Assembly (NCBI GenBank): GCA_030587475.2
Contig: JAUQYZ020000179.1
Span: forward strand, 1-22,191
Length of the DNA: 22,191 nucleotides
Direction of reading: 5' to 3'
Source of the DNA: Candidatus Sigynarchaeum calidifontis
Lineage (GTDB): Archaea > Asgardarchaeota > Lokiarchaeia > Sigyniarchaeales > Sigyniarchaeaceae
Below the pieces are notes generated by a model, which did no database searches, had not been told where the DNA came from, and saw only the letters and a program-made list of their open reading frames with translations. The position numbers were made by a program, and so were the translations under genes. Every line of letters begins with the position of its first letter. Positions within the stretch are counted from its first letter, which is position 1. This document shows, in pieces, positions 739-9,979 of this stretch.

Positions 739-1497
739 CTAGCGAAAGAGCCCGTATATTTCCTTCCAGTTCTCGAGTTCCTTTTTCATCGATTCGAAGT
801 CTCGCGGAAGGCCGAAGTAGCCGCAAAAGCGGTTAGTCGTGGCATAGCAGATGTATTCCGCGCGGTCGAGCCACGAGCCCCGTGGCTTCTTTTCTTTATT
901 GCCCCCGTCATTGGTTTCAAGAAGCTGGGATGCATTCGCGAGGCGCTCGGCCACGTCTTGCTTATATCTTTCAACGAGATCCTTCACGCGCGGGTCATCG
1001 TGCTTGATAATTTCCTCTTTGACGAAGCCGGCCTTGATGAACTTGCGGGCGTGCGAGCCCGCGTTCGACCCGCGGTAATGCGAGAGAACTTGTCTCGGCA
1101 CGGGTTGGGTAAAGGCGATGAACGCAAGCGTCATGACCTCCGACCGGGTGTATGGCATCTCCTCGATGTAGAACGTGTCCACGTGATCAGATACCTCCTC
1201 GCGCAGGTCCATCAGCCAGAGCCCGTCGTCAATCTCGCGGACACGGATTGCACCGGCATAGGTATCATATCGCTTGGCCAAGCTTTGCAAGGCATCGTGT
1301 ATCGACGCTACCGGAATCCCTAGCGTGTCGGCGATGTCGCCCTCGGCGATCGCTTCGCCGCGCATGAACAGGCACGACTCGACGAGCTGGAGGAGCACCT
1401 CGCTATCCTTTTTGGCGATGTCAAGCACATCTTGGGAAATCTCGCCTCCGGCGGGCGTGGCACGCGCCGCGTCGACCAAGTCAATCACGTCTGCCAT
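739..1497 (-). CDS. scpB: SMC-Scp complex subunit ScpB (kite protein)
   Basis: Tandem winged-helix motifs: LVESCLF, TLAFIAFTQPV, YRGSNAGSH, YATTNRFCGYFGL. Starts 4 nt after the smc stop with a GAGGTGG SD. Confidence 0.9.
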   Translation of the reverse strand: MADVIDLVDAARATPAGGEISQDVLDIAKKDSEVLLQLVESCLFMRGEAIAEGDIADTLGIPVASIHDALQSLAKRYDTYAGAIRVREIDDGLWLMDLREEVSDHVDTFYIEEMPYTRSEVMTLAFIAFTQPVPRQVLSHYRGSNAGSHARKFIKAGFVKEEIIKHDDPRVKDLVERYKQDVAERLANASQLLETNDGGNKEKKPRGSWLDRAEYICYATTNRFCGYFGLPRDFESMKKELENWKEIYGLFR

Positions 1498-1501
1498 GAT
1501 A

Positions 1502-4500
1502 TCACGCCACCTCTTGTGGTGCTTGTAGGATTTTCGAGAGCTCGCTGAGCTTCAATTGGATGACATCAGTAACCCCGTCGACGTTCGACACCCCGAGGAT
1601 CTGGTCGACACGGGTCATTGTCACGTCTCGGTGCGTGACGATGATGAATTGACTACGGTTCGATAGTTCCTTGATTAAATCGGCAACGAGCAGCGCGTTC
1701 GCATCGTCCAGCGCAGCGTCGATCTCGTCCAATATGTACAATGGCGAGGGACAGTGTTGCTGGATGGCAAAGATGAGTGACAGGGAAGTCAACGCTTTTT
1801 CACCACCGGACAAGAGCGATATCTCGTTTAATGGCTTTCCCAAGGGACGGGCCATGATTTGCACGCCGCCAGCGAACGGATCGTCGAGATTTTCCAGCTC
1901 GAGCTTGGCTTCGCCTCCCGGGGACAGCCGGGAGAAGACGTAGGCGAAGTTCCGCGCGATGCTCTGGTAGGTTTGCAGGAACACGGTTTTCTTCTGCTTT
2001 TCGATCGACGACATGAATTCGAGAATCGACTCCCTTTCCTTGACCAGTACATCGTGCTTGCCTGAAAGGTCATCGAAACGTGCCTTGTTTTCGTTGTATT
2101 TTTCGATGGCCATCATATTCACATTGCCAAGGCGTGCGATCTCTGCCTTAGCTAATTCGATATCTTTCACGAGCTGCCCCTTGCCACGCTTGATCACGTC
2201 ATCTGGCACGCTCGATGCGGGCGATAGTTCAGCCCGAAGCGCTGCGAGCGTCTGCTCCAGCTCCGCGATCTTCACGGCTTGCGAAGCTTTCTTAAGATCC
2301 GCCGCCTGGCGCTCCAGCCCGAGTCGCTGCAAACCCGAGGTGAGGTCGTCCTTTTGCTTCTCGAGTTCCCGCTTGGTATTGAGTAGCATACCCAGCTCCC
2401 CGTTTTTCTCGGCAAGCAGCTGCTCGAGAGCCTTGATCTTGTCGATTGTCGCTGCCTTTTCGGCCTCCTTCGCGATGATGCCTTGAGATGCCGAAACGAT
2501 CGTCGCGTCGAGGTCCGCTATGCGGTCTTGTTTGGCCTTGATAGAGCCGATGACATGCTCCGTGAGACGTGTCGTTTTCTGGGCGAGCGCGATGCTGGCC
2601 TTGCTGATCGTCGCCTCGGTGGCCTTTATCTCGCGCTCGATCGCCTCGATCTCGGCCTGTACCTGTGCGTGGGGTGATTCTTTCAGCGATCTGTCTATGG
2701 CAGCGATTTCCTCTTCGAGCGCGGCGACCCGCGCTTCGGCTTGCTGGCCGTCGGTAACAAGCTTCTCCCGCCGCAGCATATTCGCTGCGATCAACGACTT
2801 GAGTTCGGCAACCTTCTGTGCCGCGTCCCCGCTGCCTTGTTCGAGTTCCTCGAGGCGTGCTTCGAGCTTGGCGACCTGCTCTCGCAAGCCGCTTCGTGCC
2901 ATTTCCCCGTTGATCTTGGCCGTGTAGTAATCTGCGATGCGTCGCTGGGACGCTTTGATCTCGTGCTCGAGTGCTCTCTCCTTTTCCTTCAAGGATTCCA
3001 GCTCGCGCTCCATCATCGGCAGCTTGTCCTCGTCCTTCGTCTGGAACGCGGTGCCGACGGCCTTCTTGTTGATCGACCCGCCTGTCATGAGATTGCTGGG
3101 GTCAATCACGTCGCCATCCAGCGTGACGCGGCGGTAGCCCGGCGCGAATTCCTTGGCTACCTCGAGATCATCGACGATGAACGTGCGGCCGAAGATGAAC
3201 TCGAAAGCGGGCAAATATTTCTTGTCGAAGTCGATCAGGTCGACCGCCCGGCCATGCACGCCCTTGCCGAGCACTAGCCCGTGATCGTATTCCTTGTACG
3301 AGATCTTGTCGAGGGGGATGAACGACACGCGGCCGAGATTTCCTTTCTTCAAGTAATTGATGCATTCCGTGGCAACGTTCCGGTCGTCCACGACCATGAA
3401 GTTGGTCTTGCCGCCCGCGGCGATGTCCATTGCGACCGAGAACCGTGCATCCACCTTGCCGAGATTGCCTACCGTGTCGTGAATTCCCTTGATGATGCCC
3501 TGGCGTTTCGCTTCAAGCAAGGCGGCGATTGCTTTCGCAGCCCCGTTCCCCGCCATGTTTTGCGAGACCTTGATCGTAGACCGGAGCTCGTAAAGGGCCT
3601 CGGATTTATGCCGTATCATGTCCTTCGTGACTCGGAGCTCGCTCTCGAGCCGCTTCACGTCGGCCTCGATCGTGTCAAGATTTTCACCAGCGGTCTCTCC
3701 CGGCTCCGCAAGGCGCGCGCGCAACTCTTGCAATTGGACTTGGAGAGATTCCCGTTGAGAAGCTGCGTTCTCGGCCTTTTGCTCGATGGATTGCACGCTA
3801 GCCCTGTCCTTCGCGATGTAATTCTCGACCATTTTAAGCTCGGCATGTATCTCGTTGACCACGTTTTTTGCATCGAGCAATGACTGACGGCACCGCTCCT
3901 TGCTGGCGAGCAAGTCCTGGTATTTCTTGTCGTGGCTTGAAAGTTCGGCGTTCTTTTCTTGAAGAGAAACCCGCTTGGCTGATAACGCATCATCTTGAGC
4001 GGCTGCTCTGACCTTTGCATCCTGGATCTCGGACTCGAGCGTTGCCTTTTCCGCATCGAGTTTTTTAATCTCCTCTGCTACACGTGCTCTTTCCGCCGTC
4101 GCGTCTCTCTCCTGCTCTCCGAGGTACTTGATCGCGGATTTGAGATCGGCGAGGGCCTGCTTGAGCTGGTCGAGCTCCTGGTTGATGGCGAGCAGTTCCT
4201 TCCCTTGTTTGTTTGCTAGATCGTCGGTGATTTCCTTGATCTTAGCCTTGACATCCTCTACTGCTGCTTCCTTTTCCTTGATCGCGCCATCTATCTCGGA
4301 AACCTTCTGCTCCAAGGACGAGACGAGCTGCTTGGCCTTGCTCGCCTCGCTCGCGATAGCTTCGATGTCGACAAACTTGATAGCGAGAGACAATTGTTCG
4401 AGTGTTTTCGTGAGGTCCCGGTACTTGATGGCAGCGTCACGTTCCTTCTCGAGGTCGGCGAGCTGGGTCGACACCTCGTTTAGCAAGAGACGTACTTGCG

Positions 4501-5080
4501 AGATGTTTGCCTCGACCTGGTCGAGCTCCTTCTGAGCGTTTTCCTTTTTCTCGTCGTACGCAGCGATGCCCGCGATGTCCTCGATGAGCTTGCGGCGTTC
4601 GTTTTTATTCATGTTGACGACCTCGTATACCGAGCCTTGCAAGACCATGCTATACCCGCTGGAATGCAAGCCCCCCATGGCGAGCAGGTCTTGAATTTCG
4701 GTTCGGGTACTGGTCACGCCGTTGATTTTGTACTTGCTATGGCCATCCAGGTCGACGCTGCGGGATATCTTGACGACATCCGCGTCGATGGGCAAGCCCC
4801 TATCCGAGTTATCGAGGACGAGCTCGACAGACGCCTCCTTGGCCGGTGGAATGCCAGCCTTCGGGTTGCCCGAGTAGATCATGTTTCGCATGTTTTCCCC
4901 GCGCAAGCTCTTGGCGGACAAGTTTCCCATGACGAAGCTGAACGCTTCCAAGATGTTGGATTTCCCGCTGCCGTTCGCGCCAACGATGGCCGAGAACCCT
5001 TTATCGAAATCGATTTGCACGGTCTTCGTCGCGCCGACGCTCTTGAAGCCGCGCAGCCGCATGTACTTGATGAATACCAT
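1502..5080 (-). CDS. smc: Chromosome segregation protein SMC (condensin)
   Basis: 1192 aa; GFKS, Walker A GANGSGKS, long coiled coils, hinge (GRVSFIPLDKI, VTLDGD...MTGG), signature LSGGE, Walker B ILDEIDAALD, VTHR. Confidence 0.97.
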   Translation of the reverse strand: MVFIKYMRLRGFKSVGATKTVQIDFDKGFSAIVGANGSGKSNILEAFSFVMGNLSAKSLRGENMRNMIYSGNPKAGIPPAKEASVELVLDNSDRGLPIDADVVKISRSVDLDGHSKYKINGVTSTRTEIQDLLAMGGLHSSGYSMVLQGSVYEVVNMNKNERRKLIEDIAGIAAYDEKKENAQKELDQVEANISQVRLLLNEVSTQLADLEKERDAAIKYRDLTKTLEQLSLAIKFVDIEAIASEASKAKQLVSSLEQKVSEIDGAIKEKEAAVEDVKAKIKEITDDLANKQGKELLAINQELDQLKQALADLKSAIKYLGEQERDATAERARVAEEIKKLDAEKATLESEIQDAKVRAAAQDDALSAKRVSLQEKNAELSSHDKKYQDLLASKERCRQSLLDAKNVVNEIHAELKMVENYIAKDRASVQSIEQKAENAASQRESLQVQLQELRARLAEPGETAGENLDTIEADVKRLESELRVTKDMIRHKSEALYELRSTIKVSQNMAGNGAAKAIAALLEAKRQGIIKGIHDTVGNLGKVDARFSVAMDIAAGGKTNFMVVDDRNVATECINYLKKGNLGRVSFIPLDKISYKEYDHGLVLGKGVHGRAVDLIDFDKKYLPAFEFIFGRTFIVDDLEVAKEFAPGYRRVTLDGDVIDPSNLMTGGSINKKAVGTAFQTKDEDKLPMMERELESLKEKERALEHEIKASQRRIADYYTAKINGEMARSGLREQVAKLEARLEELEQGSGDAAQKVAELKSLIAANMLRREKLVTDGQQAEARVAALEEEIAAIDRSLKESPHAQVQAEIEAIEREIKATEATISKASIALAQKTTRLTEHVIGSIKAKQDRIADLDATIVSASQGIIAKEAEKAATIDKIKALEQLLAEKNGELGMLLNTKRELEKQKDDLTSGLQRLGLERQAADLKKASQAVKIAELEQTLAALRAELSPASSVPDDVIKRGKGQLVKDIELAKAEIARLGNVNMMAIEKYNENKARFDDLSGKHDVLVKERESILEFMSSIEKQKKTVFLQTYQSIARNFAYVFSRLSPGGEAKLELENLDDPFAGGVQIMARPLGKPLNEISLLSGGEKALTSLSLIFAIQQHCPSPLYILDEIDAALDDANALLVADLIKELSNRSQFIIVTHRDVTMTRVDQILGVSNVDGVTDVIQLKLSELSKILQAPQEVA

Positions 5081-5162
5081 GGTAGGTGACCGGGATTATC
5101 GTGTCAAGTCCGATGAATATGACCTGGATATTCCCGGCGGCATCTTGAAGCCCTATATCATC
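4937..5162. repeat. Direct repeat copy 1: smc codons 1-48 plus 82 bp upstream
   Basis: Ungapped alignment to 6916-7141 (offset 1979); 28 mismatches in 226 bp by hand count (about 88% identity). Confidence 0.95.
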
Positions 5163-5579
5163 GGCGTATATGTGCAGCGATCGAAGCTTGAGTTCACAAT
5201 CGTAACTTCTTTTTAACGACAATAACGCTCCACGTCCGAGTCCGACTAAGGTTTCAAGCGAATGAAGCCTTATGAACGGATATAAGCACAGAAGCAAATA
5301 GATAAGCAAACTACGAAGCGCCTCGAATCATACGAGACCTCCTGGGCATTCGTGAATAAACACGTGAATTCTACGAGAAACAAAAGTGATATCGCTAGGA
5401 AAATACTTACAGCGTTGATTGCCGGCAAGATCTTGCTCGCGCGGCCCTCTACAAACAAGATCCAAGATGGAAAAAGAGCTAAATTAATAGACTCAAGGAC
5501 ATGGTATCGGAGCCAAGGTGATAATCTTATGTCGATGCAAATCTATATTTAAGATCTTAATATTCTGATTGCTAAGAGC

Positions 5580-5586
5580 TTATAAA
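5580..5586 (+). promoter_or_regulatory. TATA box (TTATAAA) for a leaderless ATPase transcript
   Basis: Lies about 22-28 nt upstream of ATG 5608, the usual archaeal leaderless spacing. Confidence 0.55.
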
Positions 5587-5607
5587 CCCGTTTGCATTAA
5601 TATTATT

Positions 5608-6900
5608 ATGGATGTTGAGGGTTTCAACCCGTGGTGGCAAGGGGAGCCAGACGAGCAGTTCGTTGCCTGGCAAGCCAGTCCCATCCATTGGATACCAAAA
5701 ATTATTGATAAAATTCATATTACAAACTCGTACAACCTATATTTTTTAACCGGGCCGCGCCAAGTTGGTAAAACAACTGCGTTAAAAATCTTGATCCAGA
5801 AGGAACTTGAAAAGAAACGAGATCCTCATTCGATCCTCTACATCCAATGCGATGAAATACTTGACTTCAAGGAGCTCGGCGATGTGCTCGATAAATACAT
5901 TAAAAGTAAAAATGCACGTGGAATCACGCGATCTTTGATCGTTCTCGATGAGATTCCAACCGTGAGAGAGTGGTGGAGGGCGATCAAGGCACGCATCGAC
6001 GCGTTCCAGTTCAAGAACGACACGATCATCATCACGGGTTCGTCAAGCATCGAGGTGCTCCAGGAACGGGAACGGTTTCCTGGCCGGCGTGGTGATGGGG
6101 TGGACCTCGTCATGTATCCGTTAACCTTTGGCGAGTACGTCGACCTTCATGTCAAGGCGATCGTGCACCAGGATCTCGACCTAACGAAAGACGTTAACGA
6201 TATCGTCCAACCTAATTTGGTATATGCGGGGAAAATTGATACATTGTTTCAAGATTATTTGATAACTGGTGGATTCCCGCTTCCCATCAAGGATTATCTT
6301 GAGGCACGAAAAATCAAGGTAGGTACTAGACATACGTACATGAATTGGATCCAAGGAGACGTGCGTAAGGCTGGGAAGAATGAAATGTTGATGAAAGAAA
6401 TTCTCGGGTTCATCTTGATGGCGCGATGCTCTCCCGTGAGTTGGCTCGGCATCAGCAAAAACACGTCGGTGAATTCGCCCCACACGGCACAGTCTTACAT
6501 CGAAACTCTTGAAAAATTGCACGTGGTCACCATCTTACCCTTTCTTTCTCAAAATGGCACCATCAATAACAAGAAAAACAAAAAAATACATGTCATCGAT
6601 CCATTCATCTATGCGGTCTTACAAGAATACACGGGTGTCAAGATACTCGAAGAAACCGTGGTTGAAAGCATCGTCGCGTCACACCTGTCGCGTGGCTACA
6701 ATACATACTACTGGAAAAATGGCAGTGAGGTAGATGCCATCGCGCTGGTTAATGGCCGGCAAATCGGATTCGAGGTCAAGTGGGGGTACAAGCAGTGGCG
6801 GCAGCCGATTCACCTGAAAAAAACATACTTGCTCACTAAAGACCTGCTTCCCACGTTCATGGCGACCATTCAATTTCCACCGGTTACTCTGCCTTCTTAA
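5608..6900 (+). CDS. AAA+ superfamily ATPase (AAA_14 + DUF4143-type) with C-terminal PD-(D/E)XK-like motif
   Basis: N-terminal FNPWW, Walker A GPRQVGKT, Walker B IVLDEI, ITGSS, FPGRRG, YLITGGFP, C-terminal EVD...FEVK. ATG 5608 preferred over the track's 5569 start because of the TATA position and the NPWW N-terminus. Confidence 0.88.
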   Translation: MDVEGFNPWWQGEPDEQFVAWQASPIHWIPKIIDKIHITNSYNLYFLTGPRQVGKTTALKILIQKELEKKRDPHSILYIQCDEILDFKELGDVLDKYIKSKNARGITRSLIVLDEIPTVREWWRAIKARIDAFQFKNDTIIITGSSSIEVLQERERFPGRRGDGVDLVMYPLTFGEYVDLHVKAIVHQDLDLTKDVNDIVQPNLVYAGKIDTLFQDYLITGGFPLPIKDYLEARKIKVGTRHTYMNWIQGDVRKAGKNEMLMKEILGFILMARCSPVSWLGISKNTSVNSPHTAQSYIETLEKLHVVTILPFLSQNGTINNKKNKKIHVIDPFIYAVLQEYTGVKILEETVVESIVASHLSRGYNTYYWKNGSEVDAIALVNGRQIGFEVKWGYKQWRQPIHLKKTYLLTKDLLPTFMATIQFPPVTLPS

Positions 6901-7059
6901 ATATCCAATGATGGTGCTGAACGCTTCCAGGATGTTCGATTTTCCGCTGTCATTCGCACCATGGATCGCCGAGAACCCATTGTCGAATTTTATTTGCCCG
7001 GTCTTTATCGCGCCGACGTTCTTGAAGCCGCGCAGCCGCATGTGCTTGATGAATACTAT
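6898..7059 (-). pseudogene. smc: smc 5' fragment (about 54 codons), degenerate
   Basis: IVFIKHMRLRGFKNVGAIKTGQIKFDNGFSAIHGANDSGKSNILEAFSTIIGYL vs SMC MVFIKYMRLRGFKSVGATKTVQIDFDKGFSAIVGANGSGKSNILEAFSFVMGNL; start ATG->ATA, Walker A G->D. Confidence 0.9.
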
Positions 7060-7141
7060 GGTGGATGACCGGGATTGTCGTGTCTTGTTAGATGAATATG
7101 ACCTGGATATTCCCGGCGGCATCTTGAGGCCCTATATCATC
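6916..7141. repeat. Direct repeat copy 2 of smc 5' end plus upstream region
   Basis: Aligns without gaps to 4937-5162; the last 51 bp are 50/51 identical. Confidence 0.95.
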
Positions 7142-7196
7142 TGCATATTTGGGTTTTCGGGATGACCTTATTTGAGGCGCAGGATGGAACCTTCTT

Positions 7197-7267: not shown

Positions 7268-7519
7268 ATGGTGATGCCAATGGTGATGGTGATCAAGGTT
7301 GATAAGCAAGGACGGGTAATCCTTCCGAAGGAGGTGCGTGACAAGTACCACTTCGACCAAGGCACGGAATTGCACGTGATAGAGAAAGAAGATGGGATAG
7401 AAATTAAATTAGCACGGAATAAACTCCCCCTCAAGGAATTGTGTTCAAATGGATTGAAATATGATCCCAAGAATATCCTTGCATTAGACATTGCAAACAT
7501 GGATGATGACCTGCAATAA
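7268..7519 (+). CDS. AbrB/MazE/SpoVT-family antitoxin (VapB-like)
   Basis: KVDKQGRVILPKEVRDKYHFDQGTEL is a classic AbrB swapped-hairpin motif; acidic C-terminus; directly upstream of a PIN gene. Exact start uncertain (7268/7280/7286). Confidence 0.9.
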   Translation: MVMPMVMVIKVDKQGRVILPKEVRDKYHFDQGTELHVIEKEDGIEIKLARNKLPLKELCSNGLKYDPKNILALDIANMDDDLQ

Positions 7520-7547
7520 AGCTGTGGTGGTGTTAAGTGCATTGCTG

Positions 7548-8129
7548 GTGAAAAAAATTATCGACTCCAACATAATCATATACTCGCTCCTTCAGAATCA
7601 TCCTGCAAATGGAGATTGCGTAAAATTCCTCGAGGATCATGATGCACCTAACGTGCTTTATTCCTTGGTTGATTGTCTTGATGAAACTTATTGGATCTTG
7701 AAGAATGTTTATCGAATCGATGCAGTTGCGATAATTCAAAGACTTGAAAAATTGATCAACACCAATATTATTTTTCTAGGCTTGAAACTTCAAGATTCTT
7801 TTAAAGCGTTCGAAATCCAAGCAAAAAATTCCATCCAGATCACTGATGCACGTTTATTCTTGCTTGCATCGGCTCAACAAATACCCGTGATAGTAACAGA
7901 CGACATGCGGTTCCAGACGTTTAACAGATCCCAAGGATTGCTCACAGAAACTCCGATCACTCAAGACACACGAAATAAAATGGCGGAGTGGGAGAATAAG
8001 AACCTTCCTGAAGCGGGATTGCCACGAATACTCGCCCGCATACACGCATATCTTTCCGGGCGAGATCCAAAAACTGCAGATTTGTTTGAACATGATACTT
8101 TTCATTTTTCCAAGTTACCCGGTGTATAA
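7548..8129 (+). CDS. PIN-domain ribonuclease toxin (VapC-like) with C-terminal extension
   Basis: IIDSNIIIY, LDETYW, TDARL and VTDD acidic PIN residues; GTG 7548 is the probable start. Confidence 0.85.
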   Translation: MKKIIDSNIIIYSLLQNHPANGDCVKFLEDHDAPNVLYSLVDCLDETYWILKNVYRIDAVAIIQRLEKLINTNIIFLGLKLQDSFKAFEIQAKNSIQITDARLFLLASAQQIPVIVTDDMRFQTFNRSQGLLTETPITQDTRNKMAEWENKNLPEAGLPRILARIHAYLSGRDPKTADLFEHDTFHFSKLPGV

Positions 8130-8275
8130 CAAGAGAAATATACAACCTTGTTAACGGAGACGCCCTTGGGTGATCCATGTTTTCGGAAAAGGACCATCGC
8201 GTCGATGTTTCAGATATCCTTCCGATTTCTGCAATACCCTCGGGAGATATGGATGGTGACGAGATTTTACCAATA

Positions 8276-9979
8276 TTATTCGGAGCCAGATGATGGATCC
8301 AGCACGCAACCACGATCCGCCGGCGCGACCAAGGCCCGATACTTGGCCAGCAGTTTGCTATTGATTCTCGTGGTGGGAACGCGCCATTGCGACCGCCGAT
8401 TGACGAGCTCGGCCTCGGGAACGAGTAAATCGAGCCTTTTACCCGGAACGTCGATGCGGATCGTGTCTCCGTTCTGGACGAGGGCGATCGGCCCGCCGGA
8501 ATACGCCTCTGGACACACGTGGCCGATGCAGGGCCCCTGCGTCGCTCCTGAAAAGCGGCCGTCCGAGACCAACGCGACCCGGTTGAGCTCCTTCATCACC
8601 ATGAGTCCCGTGGTGAACGCGAGCAATTCCGGCATCCCAGGCGCACCTTTCGGCCCTTCGTAACGGATCACGACGACACTATTGTTCTTGATCTCGTTAG
8701 CTGCCAAAGCATTGATGGCCGCCATCTCTGATTCGAAAACAATTGCTGGGCCTTCGAACACGAGCATCGACTGCTCGGAAACGGCGGATTGCTTGATCAC
8801 GGCGCCGCGGGGTGCAAGGCTTCCCTTAAGTATGACCGTGCCGCCTTCGGGATACAGGGGCTTGTCGAGCGGCATGATGATCTTGTCATCTTGCACGAGT
8901 GCTTTCTTGATGTTCTTGCCAACGGTCTTTCCCGTGACGGTCATGCAGTCGAGGTGCAAGAATTTCGAGAGACGGTTCATCACCGCGGGGATGCCACCTG
9001 CTCTGTACAGATCCACGATGGAGTAACGCCCCGACGGTGCCACGTTCACGATCGTGGGAATTTTCTTGGAAAACTGGTTGAACCAATCGAGGTCGAAATC
9101 GATGCCCATTTCATGCGCGATGGCTGGCAAGTGCAAAGCCGAGTTCGTGGAACCCCCGATGGCCACGTCGACCATTAAAGCGTTCTCTAGGGACTCCCGG
9201 GTCATGATCTTGGAAGGGCGCAAATCCTCCTTGAGCATTCCCATGATGCGGCGACCCGATTCCTTGGCGATGCGATATTTCAATGACGTGACGGCGGGCA
9301 TGGCCGCGGCGCCCGGCAGCGTCATGCCGAATGCTTCCATGAGGCACTGCGTCGTGTTTGCCGTGCCCATAACCGAGCAAGCACCATACGTGCTACACGT
9401 GATGCACTTCAGCTTTTTCTCCACGTTCTCGTAAAACCGCGTCTCGATGCCTTGATAATCCTTTTCCGGTCCAAGCTGGACTTCATACATGTTGGGGCCA
9501 CCGGGAACGCAGATCGTCGGGATATCGAGCCGCACGGCCGCCATCAAGATGCCCGGGTTGATCTTGTCGCAAGTAGAGAGGGTGACCAGGGCATCAAACT
9601 TGTGGGCTTCGACCATCGCCTCGATGCTATCGGCGACGATGTCCCGCTGGGGCAGGATGAACCGCATTCCGTCGTGGCCGTTCGCATAGCCATCGCAAGG
9701 CGCGATCGTGTTGAAGAGCATCGGTATGCCACCTGACTCGATGATGCCGTACTTGACGGCCTCGGCAAGCCAGTTTAAATGTGCGTGACCCGGATTTATC
9801 TCGTTCCAGGTCGAGGCGATCCCGATCAGCGGCTTGCTCATGATTTCTTTCTCGTCGAGTCCAAGACCGTTGAAGATTCCGTGCGTCACGTAATAGAATA
9901 GTGTTTGCTTGGTGATGTCGAAGATTTGGTTACTACGTTTCTTGATGTTCGAGGAATTTCCGCTCATGGCCGGTTTCAC
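8276..9979 (-). CDS. ilvD: Dihydroxy-acid / sugar-acid dehydratase (IlvD/Edd family)
   Basis: NPGHAHL, CDG, ADSIE, TCDK, GACSVMGTANT, GGSTN, YEGPKGAPGMPE, DGRFSG, GHVCPEA. Start may be ATG 9967. Substrate uncertain. Confidence 0.88.
   Translation of the reverse strand: MKPAMSGNSSNIKKRSNQIFDITKQTLFYYVTHGIFNGLGLDEKEIMSKPLIGIASTWNEINPGHAHLNWLAEAVKYGIIESGGIPMLFNTIAPCDGYANGHDGMRFILPQRDIVADSIEAMVEAHKFDALVTLSTCDKINPGILMAAVRLDIPTICVPGGPNMYEVQLGPEKDYQGIETRFYENVEKKLKCITCSTYGACSVMGTANTTQCLMEAFGMTLPGAAAMPAVTSLKYRIAKESGRRIMGMLKEDLRPSKIMTRESLENALMVDVAIGGSTNSALHLPAIAHEMGIDFDLDWFNQFSKKIPTIVNVAPSGRYSIVDLYRAGGIPAVMNRLSKFLHLDCMTVTGKTVGKNIKKALVQDDKIIMPLDKPLYPEGGTVILKGSLAPRGAVIKQSAVSEQSMLVFEGPAIVFESEMAAINALAANEIKNNSVVVIRYEGPKGAPGMPELLAFTTGLMVMKELNRVALVSDGRFSGATQGPCIGHVCPEAYSGGPIALVQNGDTIRIDVPGKRLDLLVPEAELVNRRSQWRVPTTRINSKLLAKYRALVAPADRGCVLDPSSGSE

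Follow-up and report, generated by a model that had tools for sequence, protein, structure and literature searches.

Within a 22,191-nt stretch of DNA from Candidatus Sigynarchaeum calidifontis, analyzed here at its full length (the window), the start of smc occurs twice, and a single ATPase gene lies between the two copies. This raises the question of how the gene came to stand there, and whether smc or the ATPase is the key to the arrangement. The original prediction had reported a direct repeat of 226 bp (4937-5162 / 6916-7141, ~88% identical). We found that this repeat is present, but that its actual extent is larger, covering 253 nt (4920-5172 / 6899-7151; 85-86% identical, ungapped, with a spacing of 1979) and comprising 92 nt 5′ of smc together with smc codons 1 to ~57. 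As previously described, the stop codon of the ATPase (TAA) has its complement in copy B, at codon 54 (TTA, 6898-6900). A BLAST search of the whole genome with copy A, which had been suggested as a check, recovered copy B (E = 6e-79) and no further real copy; the remaining matches cover 96 nt at 71% in another SMC-like gene and 47 nt that resemble a promoter. The coordinates of the features are given in Table 1.

Table 1. Features of the smc-ATPase locus (positions in the window).
Feature	Position	Strand	Basis or remark
scpB	739-1497		comes after smc
smc, intact, 1192 aa	1502..5080	-	ORF + Pfam
Repeat copy A, functional: smc codons 1 to ~57 and 92-nt leader/promoter	4920..5172	-	
51-nt conserved upstream block in copy A, putative cis-regulatory	5112..5162	-	
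Left junction J1: module core (...CATCGGCGTATATG) meets TGCAGCGATC	5159..5182	+	
~340 bp without counterpart in the sister-species ATPase upstream region; no convincing gene	5179..5522	+	
ATPase unit: conserved promoter region 5523-5607 and AAA_14+DUF4143 gene 5608-6900, 430 aa	5523..6900	+	
Right junction J2: end of ATPase homology, ~11 nt, smc fragment	6889..6901	+	alignment
Repeat copy B: dead smc 5′ fragment and leader	6899..7151	-	
Rest of ancestral smc upstream module (GGTTTTCGGGATGACC...), kept beside copy B only	7152..7178	+	
vapBC-like pair: AbrB/MazE antitoxin 7268-7519, PIN 7503-8129	7268..8129	+	Pfam + NCBIfam; divergent from smc fragment
81-nt conserved element, paralogue of smc upstream module	8171..8251	+	

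The two copies of the repeat differ markedly in their state of preservation. For the N-terminal 60 residues encoded by smc, identity is 100% with the sister species and 88-97% within the family as a whole, and copy A is 92.9% identical over 254 nt to the corresponding region of the sister species (locus L082). Copy A thus serves as the 5′ end and leader of the intact smc. By comparison, copy B has lost the start codon (ATG to ATA) and carries the substitution G37D in Walker A. Its codon changes comprise 13 nonsynonymous and 9 synonymous ones, and 17 of 60 amino acids differ, while all orthologues are nearly invariant. The changes unique to copy B are AT-biased, with 16 from GC to AT and 3 from AT to GC, as in decaying DNA. 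Copy B is a displaced and decaying smc fragment.

It is nevertheless copy B that keeps the ancestral upstream context. The 27 nt next to it (7152-7178) have homologues 5′ of smc in L082, L084, and G002 as well as in a repeat of the sister species (L012 rep2), and are absent beside copy A; a BLAST alignment of copy B to L084 extends to 7165. In both L082 and L084, the 253-bp target is single-copy and uninterrupted. On one side it is joined to the smc body, as at copy A, and on the other to the module continuation (...TCGGGATGA) for ~25 nt, as at copy B, after which other genes follow. In a comparison based on small counts, the branch of copy B arises close to the point at which the two species diverge. 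This position is older than a simple post-split duplication predicts, which speaks against the explanation favored below.

The 1726 bp between the copies are, as had been predicted, AT-richer DNA with one ATPase gene (45% GC as compared to 56% for smc); the low-GC islet is, however, wider than the bracketed part, reaching ~8200 and taking in the vapBC-like pair. The ATPase starts with the ATG at 5608, contains AAA_14 (E = 1e-26) and DUF4143 (E = 3e-12) domains with intact Walker A (GPRQVGKT) and Walker B (VLDE) motifs, and matches the PADLOC candidate PDC-S01 (E = 1.7e-35), whose layout of an N-terminal P-loop AAA_14 and a C-terminal DUF4143 domain in ~420-440 aa it shares. Homologues that combine both domains number 930, most of them from archaea, and a search by sequence found no solved structure. 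In agreement with the original prediction, ORF and Pfam analysis of the window revealed no integrase, and the insert also lacks a transposase and terminal inverted repeats. The ATPase unit is 89.5% identical at the nucleotide level to its orthologue in the sister species (L012 5581-6946), which lies elsewhere in the same ilvD-proximal variable region (the ilvD-larA neighborhood), and the ATPase is not foreign to this locus. The IlvD proteins of the window, L012, and the same-genus genome G001, compared to ask whether ilvD had arrived together with copy B, are 61-66% identical pairwise.

The joints of the insert differ in character. Homology of copy A to smc orthologues ends at the left junction, which lies inside a 14-20-nt core common to paralogous promoter modules. 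The sister species has this very joint, TATATG|TGCAGC(A/G)ATC, directly 5′ of its own orthologue of the ATPase (L012 rep3). Because TATATG|TGCAGC is common to both species, part of the left junction predates the event. At the right junction, ATPase homology stops two codons short of the native stop, and the C termini diverge (...PPVTGT* in L012, ...TTQT* in L017, and ...PPVTLPS* here). The right joint is, judging from the alignment, illegitimate and located within the last ATPase codons. The ~340-bp extra segment next to the left junction shows 74% similarity to another contig over part of its length (5187-5309 versus C64:11130-11253). Its 66-aa ORF (5352-5552) has no Pfam match, and as the segment lacks inverted repeats, it is not an obvious MITE. 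Beyond the vapBC-like pair, the 81-nt element is 85-86% identical to L012 3255-3335 and to a site in G003 (L007 10233-10297, ~650 nt 5′ of its smc). It is neither a tRNA according to ARAGORN nor a known RNA in Rfam at E up to 1. The occurrence of several junctions at TATATG| prompted an integron-like reading with the module cores as attC-like sites, which we did not adopt: one joint among them is not recurrent but inherited, and neither an integron integrase nor an attC-type structure was seen.

The genome contains only three PF13173/PF01637 genes, and all three are bracketed by direct repeats that are unrelated to one another and derive from the end of a neighboring ordinary gene. The repeats measure 253 bp at 86% identity here, 233 bp at 89.7% on C215, and 193 bp at 85% on C131; in each pair, one copy is decayed and carries stops, and each insert has a GC content below that of its flanks. 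The other two ATPases match PADLOC PDC-S27 (E = 1e-44 and 4e-41). Since the same bracket surrounds these two at unrelated genes, the common factor is the ATPase gene and not smc. Thus, the brackets look like a recurrent insertion mode of such genes rather than the trace of an smc-targeting element. The genome holds only ~12 such repeat pairs in total, several others of which enclose toxin-antitoxin genes. Within this Asgard genome, the same signature accompanies all members of two related ATPase families together with several toxin-antitoxin modules.

Among relatives, flanking repeats were detected at 7 of 45 such ATPase genes as compared to 4 of 449 control ORFs, the latter drawn from one genome and including spurious ORFs (Fisher P = 8e-6). 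The remaining 38 genes, including 10 of the 11 in the closed Lokiarchaeal genome G011, had no detectable flanking repeat. The one case in G011 is a 355-bp repeat of 97.5% identity around an ATPase that matches PDC-S01 (E = 2.5e-112); the duplicated piece comes from the interior of cas6, the intact copy of which runs on past it, so this is not a textbook target duplication. In a further case with a 129-bp repeat, the second copy begins at the ATPase stop codon, as in the window. Young (97.5%) and old (85%) examples are thus available for work on the mechanism. These ATPases sit in variable islands, where repeats are perhaps commoner for other reasons; this point, the 38 genes without a repeat, the atypical G011 case, and the make-up of the controls tell against the favored explanation.

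The original prediction had interpreted the locus as an element that targets the smc start and supplies a replacement 5′ end. What stands is a single-gene cassette between two smc starts, one of them displaced; the targeting of the smc start and the delivery of a replacement 5′ end are not supported, given that the smc loci of the seven relatives read carry no second smc 5′ copy and that the same bracket occurs at unrelated genes. The genes upstream of smc vary in every relative examined (a further one, P0125, was seen as gene calls, without DNA), but the search for other cargo between smc 5′ repeats was negative, each of the seven loci having one smc 5′ end. Empty-site alleles were likewise sought, and no clean same-species empty site was found; the sister-species smc flank carries other genes, and in G001 the orthologous smc contig is absent and nothing matches the ATPase protein of the window, although a family search shows that this genome does carry an AAA_14 gene. 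Integrases beside smc, also suggested as a check, were represented by one Phage_integrase gene, ~0.65 kb 5′ of smc in the sister species (L082). It is truncated, covering Pfam positions 8-138 of 172 and missing the C-terminal part with the catalytic tyrosine region, and has no homologue in the present genome by tblastn. Between it and smc lies an RHH-like gene, the N-terminal 60 residues of which are 67% identical to a stretch directly 5′ of the smc of G002. Viral contigs contained no match to the conserved leader block and no ATPase relative, and a metagenome scan with the first 60 SMC residues returned only distant SMCs (≤57% identity) and no fragments. In the same island, the sister species has a direct repeat of its own, 380 bp long, around a hicAB module.

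Insertion with long target duplication has been documented for bacterial restriction-modification (RM) genes (Nobusato et al. 2000, Gene 259:99; Furuta, Abe and Kobayashi 2010, PMC2853133), with repeats >30 bp (46-423 bp in length) and no other mobility genes; no archaeal case passed the screen of the latter study (PMC2853133). Against its definition of an insert of <20 kb without mobility genes, we find 1726 bp with one gene, and against that of a repeat >30 bp, target-derived and otherwise unique, 253 bp at 86%. As in the RM insertions, long direct repeats of the local target, found nowhere else in the genome (193-355 bp here versus 46-423 bp), enclose a small defense-type unit of deviating GC content that lacks terminal inverted repeats and has neither a transposase nor an integrase. 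In contrast to them, the host is an Asgard archaeon, the repeats are old (85-90% identical) with one copy decayed, and the inserts carry one AAA+ ATPase gene (AAA_14+DUF4143 or ATPase_2+DUF234) or else toxin-antitoxin genes. Because the definition also calls for both R and M homologues in the insert, which this one does not hold, the locus resembles the class in form and is not a strict RM member. The arrangement thus appears to match the recombinase-free, long-target-duplication form known for bacterial RM genes, here with an ATPase cargo in an Asgard archaeon. How defense genes move in this recombinase-free manner is poorly understood.

A different resemblance is to the dusA islands (Farrugia et al. 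2015, PMC4482086), which also insert at the 5′ end of a housekeeping gene without breaking its frame and leave behind a displaced copy of its start. These islands, however, always have an integrase by the junction, share one conserved target across hundreds of genomes, and are excised in circular form (PMC4482086). The window has no integrase and no recombinase gene inside the element, the seven relatives show no reuse of smc as a target with variable cargo, and the same architecture occurs at unrelated genes. As for the cargo, the PADLOC entries matched by the three ATPases of the genome, PDC-S01 and PDC-S27, are single-gene AAA+ ATPase candidates for phage defense, defined as families by their enrichment in defense islands; the literature searched yielded neither a function nor a mobility mechanism for them.

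The explanation that we consider probable, on balance, is that an ATPase cassette was inserted with a long target duplication, in this lineage, once it had separated from the sister species. The 253 bp between two breakpoints, at smc codon ~57 and leader position -92, would have come to flank the insert on both sides. Copy A, joined to the smc body, would have kept smc intact, while copy B would have stayed on the original upstream DNA, with the rest of the promoter module and vapBC, and would then have undergone neutral decay, except for the 51-nt regulatory block, which is still conserved. An insertion of this kind can be borne even by an essential gene such as smc, whose start is preserved by the duplication. 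Campbell-type single crossover ("pop-in") and homology-facilitated illegitimate recombination, known mainly from genetics experiments and bacterial natural transformation, leave a direct duplication on both sides of the DNA that enters, form one joint by homology and the other illegitimately, and need no dedicated recombinase. At this Asgard locus, the joints point to one of these as the likeliest route, and the incoming piece would have carried the ATPase beside an smc-type promoter module; the homologous integration of a 1979-bp unit, raised in the original prediction, is still viable in this form. Alternatively, a staggered break, possibly provoked by the C-terminal domain of the ATPase itself, may have been filled in on both sides.

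A purely local rearrangement around an ATPase that was already resident between smc and ilvD, and never mobile, is possible but doubtful. The scar could have formed by a tandem duplication (from the ATPase 3′ end to smc codon ~57) followed by deletions between paralogous modules, or by a replication template switch that placed the smc start 3′ of the ATPase. Since the left junction, within the core shared by paralogous modules, is partly ancestral, such a rearrangement could yield the same picture; the orthologous ATPase in the same neighborhood of the sister species and the comparable repeat around hicAB also fit, as does the internal cas6 segment 3′ of the G011 ATPase, which resembles a templated patch. 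Two or three events would be required, however, and the same bracket at 3/3 ATPases, at unrelated loci and with low-GC inserts, would be left unexplained. We regard as very unlikely that the smc 5′ end is the attachment site of a site-specific integrative element, or a remnant of one, that supplies a replacement gene start and is moved by a tyrosine recombinase in trans. The integrase gene close to smc in the sister species, the hypervariable smc upstream flank of all relatives, and the several junctions at the same module core TATATG| would agree with such an element. Against it stand the window free of recombinases, the truncation of that integrase, its separation from smc by the RHH-like gene and its lack of a homologue here, the single smc 5′ end of the relatives, the viral contigs without a match, and an illegitimate right junction inside the last codons of the ATPase.

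An assembly artefact joining two strains or species is scarcely credible. The genome is a metagenome-assembled genome (MAG) of 269 contigs with 5.2% contamination, but three NCBI MAG records (GCA_030587545, GCA_030587505, and GCA_030587525) carry the same arrangement, two of them with 100% identity (across 14.9 kb and 11.1 kb) and the third with 99.99% (across 8.0 kb), although as adjacent accessions of one series they are possibly not independent, and one may be the assembly of the window itself. The copies differ by 14%, which makes strain collapse or a chimera unlikely; moreover, copy B shows the decay of a pseudogene and not the features of a second functional allele, and the same architecture exists in a closed genome.

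A broader and decidedly speculative extension would be to regard the abundant archaeal AAA+ ATPases that end in a DUF4143 or DUF234 domain as mobile elements in their own right, each made up of a single gene. The ATPase itself would provoke the break or recombination by which its gene enters, and the target duplication would be long and of variable length. Entry would usually take place where a neighboring gene ends, so that the host gene survives. We rate this improbable; the signature of mobility itself is now tied to a very common archaeal gene family without an assigned function.

Last, the 51-nt block upstream of smc departs from the decay of copy B. It is identical at 50 of 51 positions between the copies (5112-5162 versus 7091-7141; binomial P ~4e-4 relative to the remainder of the repeat). 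An nhmmer search with this block returned three sites in the genome, namely copy A, copy B, and C141:6386-6454, the last of which lies 5′ of a Tubulin/FtsZ_C (ftsZ-like) gene. The retention in a decayed copy of a block common to an ftsZ-like gene points to a candidate cell-cycle regulatory element in Asgard archaea.

The window is a complete 22-kb contig from a 5-Mb metagenome-assembled genome (MAG). Repeat search and MAFFT alignment confirmed the predicted direct repeat of the smc start as two ungapped copies of 253 nt, which are 85-86% identical and spaced by 1979 nt, and a genome-wide search found no further copy. Because smc starts inside the smc-attached copy (copy A), the repeat consists of a 92-nt leader and smc codons 1 to about 57. 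As also predicted, the copies enclose AT-richer DNA (1726 bp; GC 45% versus 56%) with a single ATPase gene, whose stop codon coincides, on the opposite strand, with codon 54 of the outer copy (copy B). This gene has AAA_14 and DUF4143 domains and matches PADLOC candidate PDC-S01. An identical structure was present in three NCBI MAG records at 100% or 99.99% identity; since their accessions are adjacent, these records may not be independent, and one is possibly the window's own assembly. The closest named protein matches belong to Candidatus Sigynarchaeum and other Asgard archaea, and TFIIB genes lie near the studied region.

Features of the repeat locus and related loci (positions with no prefix refer to the window; C, other contigs of the same genome; L012 and L082, ATPase and smc loci of the sister species; L007, L008, and L142, loci of relatives G003, G002, and G011)
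Feature	Location	Strand	Description
Repeat copy A	4920-5172		smc-attached
Repeat copy B	6899-7151		outer
smc	1502-5080	minus	1192 aa
ATPase gene	5608-6900	plus	AAA_14 + DUF4143 domains
Extra bases relative to L012	5179-5522
Conserved block	5112-5162 (A); 7091-7141 (B); C141:6386-6454 (L097)
81-nt conserved element	8171-8251; L012 3255-3335, 4157-4231, 5511-5585; L007 10233-10297
Window ATPase bracket			253 bp, 86% identical; smc 5' end and leader
C215 ATPase bracket			233 bp, 89.7% identical; 3' end of PIG-L deacetylase gene
C131 ATPase bracket			193 bp, 85% identical; 3' end of 175-aa gene
Repeat around hicAB	L012 3850-4231; 5208-5585		3' part of vapC-like gene and promoter-like module
cas6 duplication	L142 2626-3621; 5246-5776		355-bp internal piece
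RHH-like and tyrosine recombinase genes	L082 413-1782		upstream of smc
Match to RHH-like residues 11-70	L008 8358-8537		67% identical
IlvD/Edd-family dehydratase	8276-9979; L012 10728-12419		63% aa identity

The window organism and its sister species share all of the first 60 SMC residues, although their smc DNA is only 84% identical; across the family, these residues are 88-97% identical. Copy B carries changes at 17 of these 60 residues, including G37D in the Walker A loop, and reads ATA where the start codon belongs; the differences between the copies are mostly unique to B and strongly AT-biased (16 GC to AT, 3 AT to GC). Thus, copy B is a neutrally decaying fragment and copy A the working gene start. 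At informative sites, which are few, B branches near the split of the two species; it would be old, roughly half the age of that split or more, the numbers being too small for a finer estimate. Beyond position -92, copy B reads GGTTTTCGGGATGACC, resembling the smc upstream regions of the sister species and two further relatives (L084 and G002), and B alone has kept this ancestral continuation. The homology of copy A to all orthologues ends at -92, where TGCAGCGATC follows. Thus, the sister species (L082) and L084 most likely represent the uninterrupted target: in both, the 253 bp are single-copy, with the smc body on one side, as at A, and the rest of the promoter module on the other, as at B. 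A search for a same-species empty site found none.

Within decaying copy B, 50 of the 51 nt at 7091-7141 match A, as against a divergence of about 18% over the remainder of the repeat (P about 4e-4). Relatives likewise conserve this block, of about 60 nt, at smc, and elsewhere in the genome it recurs only once, immediately ahead of a 442-aa Tubulin/FtsZ_C gene. These observations suggest that it is still under constraint in B and make it a candidate for an element that regulates genes of segregation and division, potentially a shared cell-cycle cis-element in this Asgard lineage. In B, the dead smc fragment, antisense to the ATPase, lies to one side of it and vapBC to the other.

The left joint, after copy A, reads TATATG followed by TGCAGCGATC. 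In the sister species, the orthologous ATPase has the same joint immediately ahead of it (TATATG followed by TGCAGCAATC), where the preceding promoter-like module is a different, paralogous one. An 81-nt conserved element has the same architecture as the smc leader (TCCCGr ... TAyCATCGGGrTATATG ... TCGGGAT), and the left joint thus falls inside a core of 14-20 nt that paralogous modules share. The 81-nt element is present in three copies at the sister ATPase locus and once in G003, ~650 nt upstream of smc, with 85-86% identity between genera, above that of coding DNA. It corresponds to no tRNA and has no Rfam match; partial copies occur between toxin-antitoxin cassettes in the sister species. 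Compared with the sister locus, the window has ~340 extra bases ahead of the conserved ATPase promoter. A part of them (5187-5309) is 74% similar to C64:11130-11253, just downstream of a 478-aa gene. At the right joint, which is illegitimate, homology to the sister ATPase stops at 6889, two codons short of the native stop, and ~11 nt separate this point from the smc fragment.

The original prediction of an integrative element that targets the smc start, bringing a new 5' end and upstream region, found no support. The window contains no recombinase, and the smc loci of seven relatives have one 5' end each (an eighth, known as gene calls without DNA, is outside this set). Their upstream genes are hypervariable, including toxin-antitoxin modules, an esterase, and an ABC transporter, but no second smc 5' end encloses them as alternative cargo. 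Searches of viral contigs for the leader block and for the ATPase returned nothing. An integrase near smc does exist in the sister species; however, this Phage_integrase gene is missing its C-terminal third and with it the catalytic tyrosine region, has no homologue in the window's genome, and has an RHH-like gene (167 aa) between it and smc. The latter is probably native, since a stretch immediately ahead of smc in G002 matches the N-terminal 60 residues of its product at 67% identity. The ATPase is not new to the locus either. Its sister-species orthologue (87% aa identity; 89.5% nt identity, with 85 nt of promoter counted in) lies, without the smc repeat, a few kb from the same ilvD-larA cluster. 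In that cluster, the adjacent larA, MBL, SDR, and RraA genes have about 85% DNA identity to the sister species, and the poorly matching dehydratase gene has either been replaced or evolved much faster. In four assemblies of one relative (L085-L088), the contig ends ~2 kb upstream of smc, after UPF0175/DUF3368 and MazE toxin-antitoxin genes, which hints that this hotspot contains a repeat or varies within the population.

[quoted passage not shown] No archaeal case survived the screen of that study, and we found no archaeal or ATPase example in the literature searched. Thus, we read the locus as one instance of this class with a new cargo, an ATPase instead of restriction-modification genes, and a new host, an Asgard archaeon, rather than as an smc-targeting element. 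As for the route, one joint is homologous, in the shared module core, and the other is illegitimate; this combination is suggestive of single-crossover or homology-facilitated integration, and the incoming DNA would already have had the ATPase beside an smc-type module. The alternatives are a staggered break with fill-in and a local duplication with later deletions.

Self-BLAST of the genome detected about a dozen local direct-repeat pairs (at least 100 bp, at least 80% identity, spacing 0.8-3.5 kb). The genome has just three genes with AAA_14 or ATPase_2 Pfam domains, and all three lie inside such pairs. Across the three loci, the repeats are unrelated or distant, and so are the ATPases (those of C215 and C131, both matching PDC-S27 in PADLOC, are 32% identical). 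One repeat copy is decayed in both C215 and C131, with 6 versus 11 and 4 versus 17 synonymous versus nonsynonymous changes, respectively, and a stop in each. The three inserts have GC below their flanks, with no terminal inverted repeats or common ends. Several of the remaining pairs enclose ParE, PIN, or DUF2283 genes. A 380-bp direct repeat (90-95% identical) surrounds a hicAB module beside the ATPase of the sister species; the second repeat copy ends exactly where the ATPase unit starts. Among relatives of the same order, flanking direct repeats were found at 7 of 45 such ATPase genes as compared to 4 of 449 control ORFs (Fisher P 8e-6), the controls being crude: ORFs of similar size, all from the window's genome. 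Most ATPase copies in relatives, including 10 of 11 in the closed Lokiarchaeal genome G011, have no repeat. One of the two best cases is a 129-bp repeat whose second copy begins at the ATPase stop codon, as in the window. The other, a 355-bp repeat (97.5% identical) in G011, more closely resembles a templated patch, with an internal cas6 segment (114 of 115 aa identical) duplicated just 3' of the ATPase. This ATPase has AAA_14 + DUF4143 domains and adjoins the source cas6 gene.
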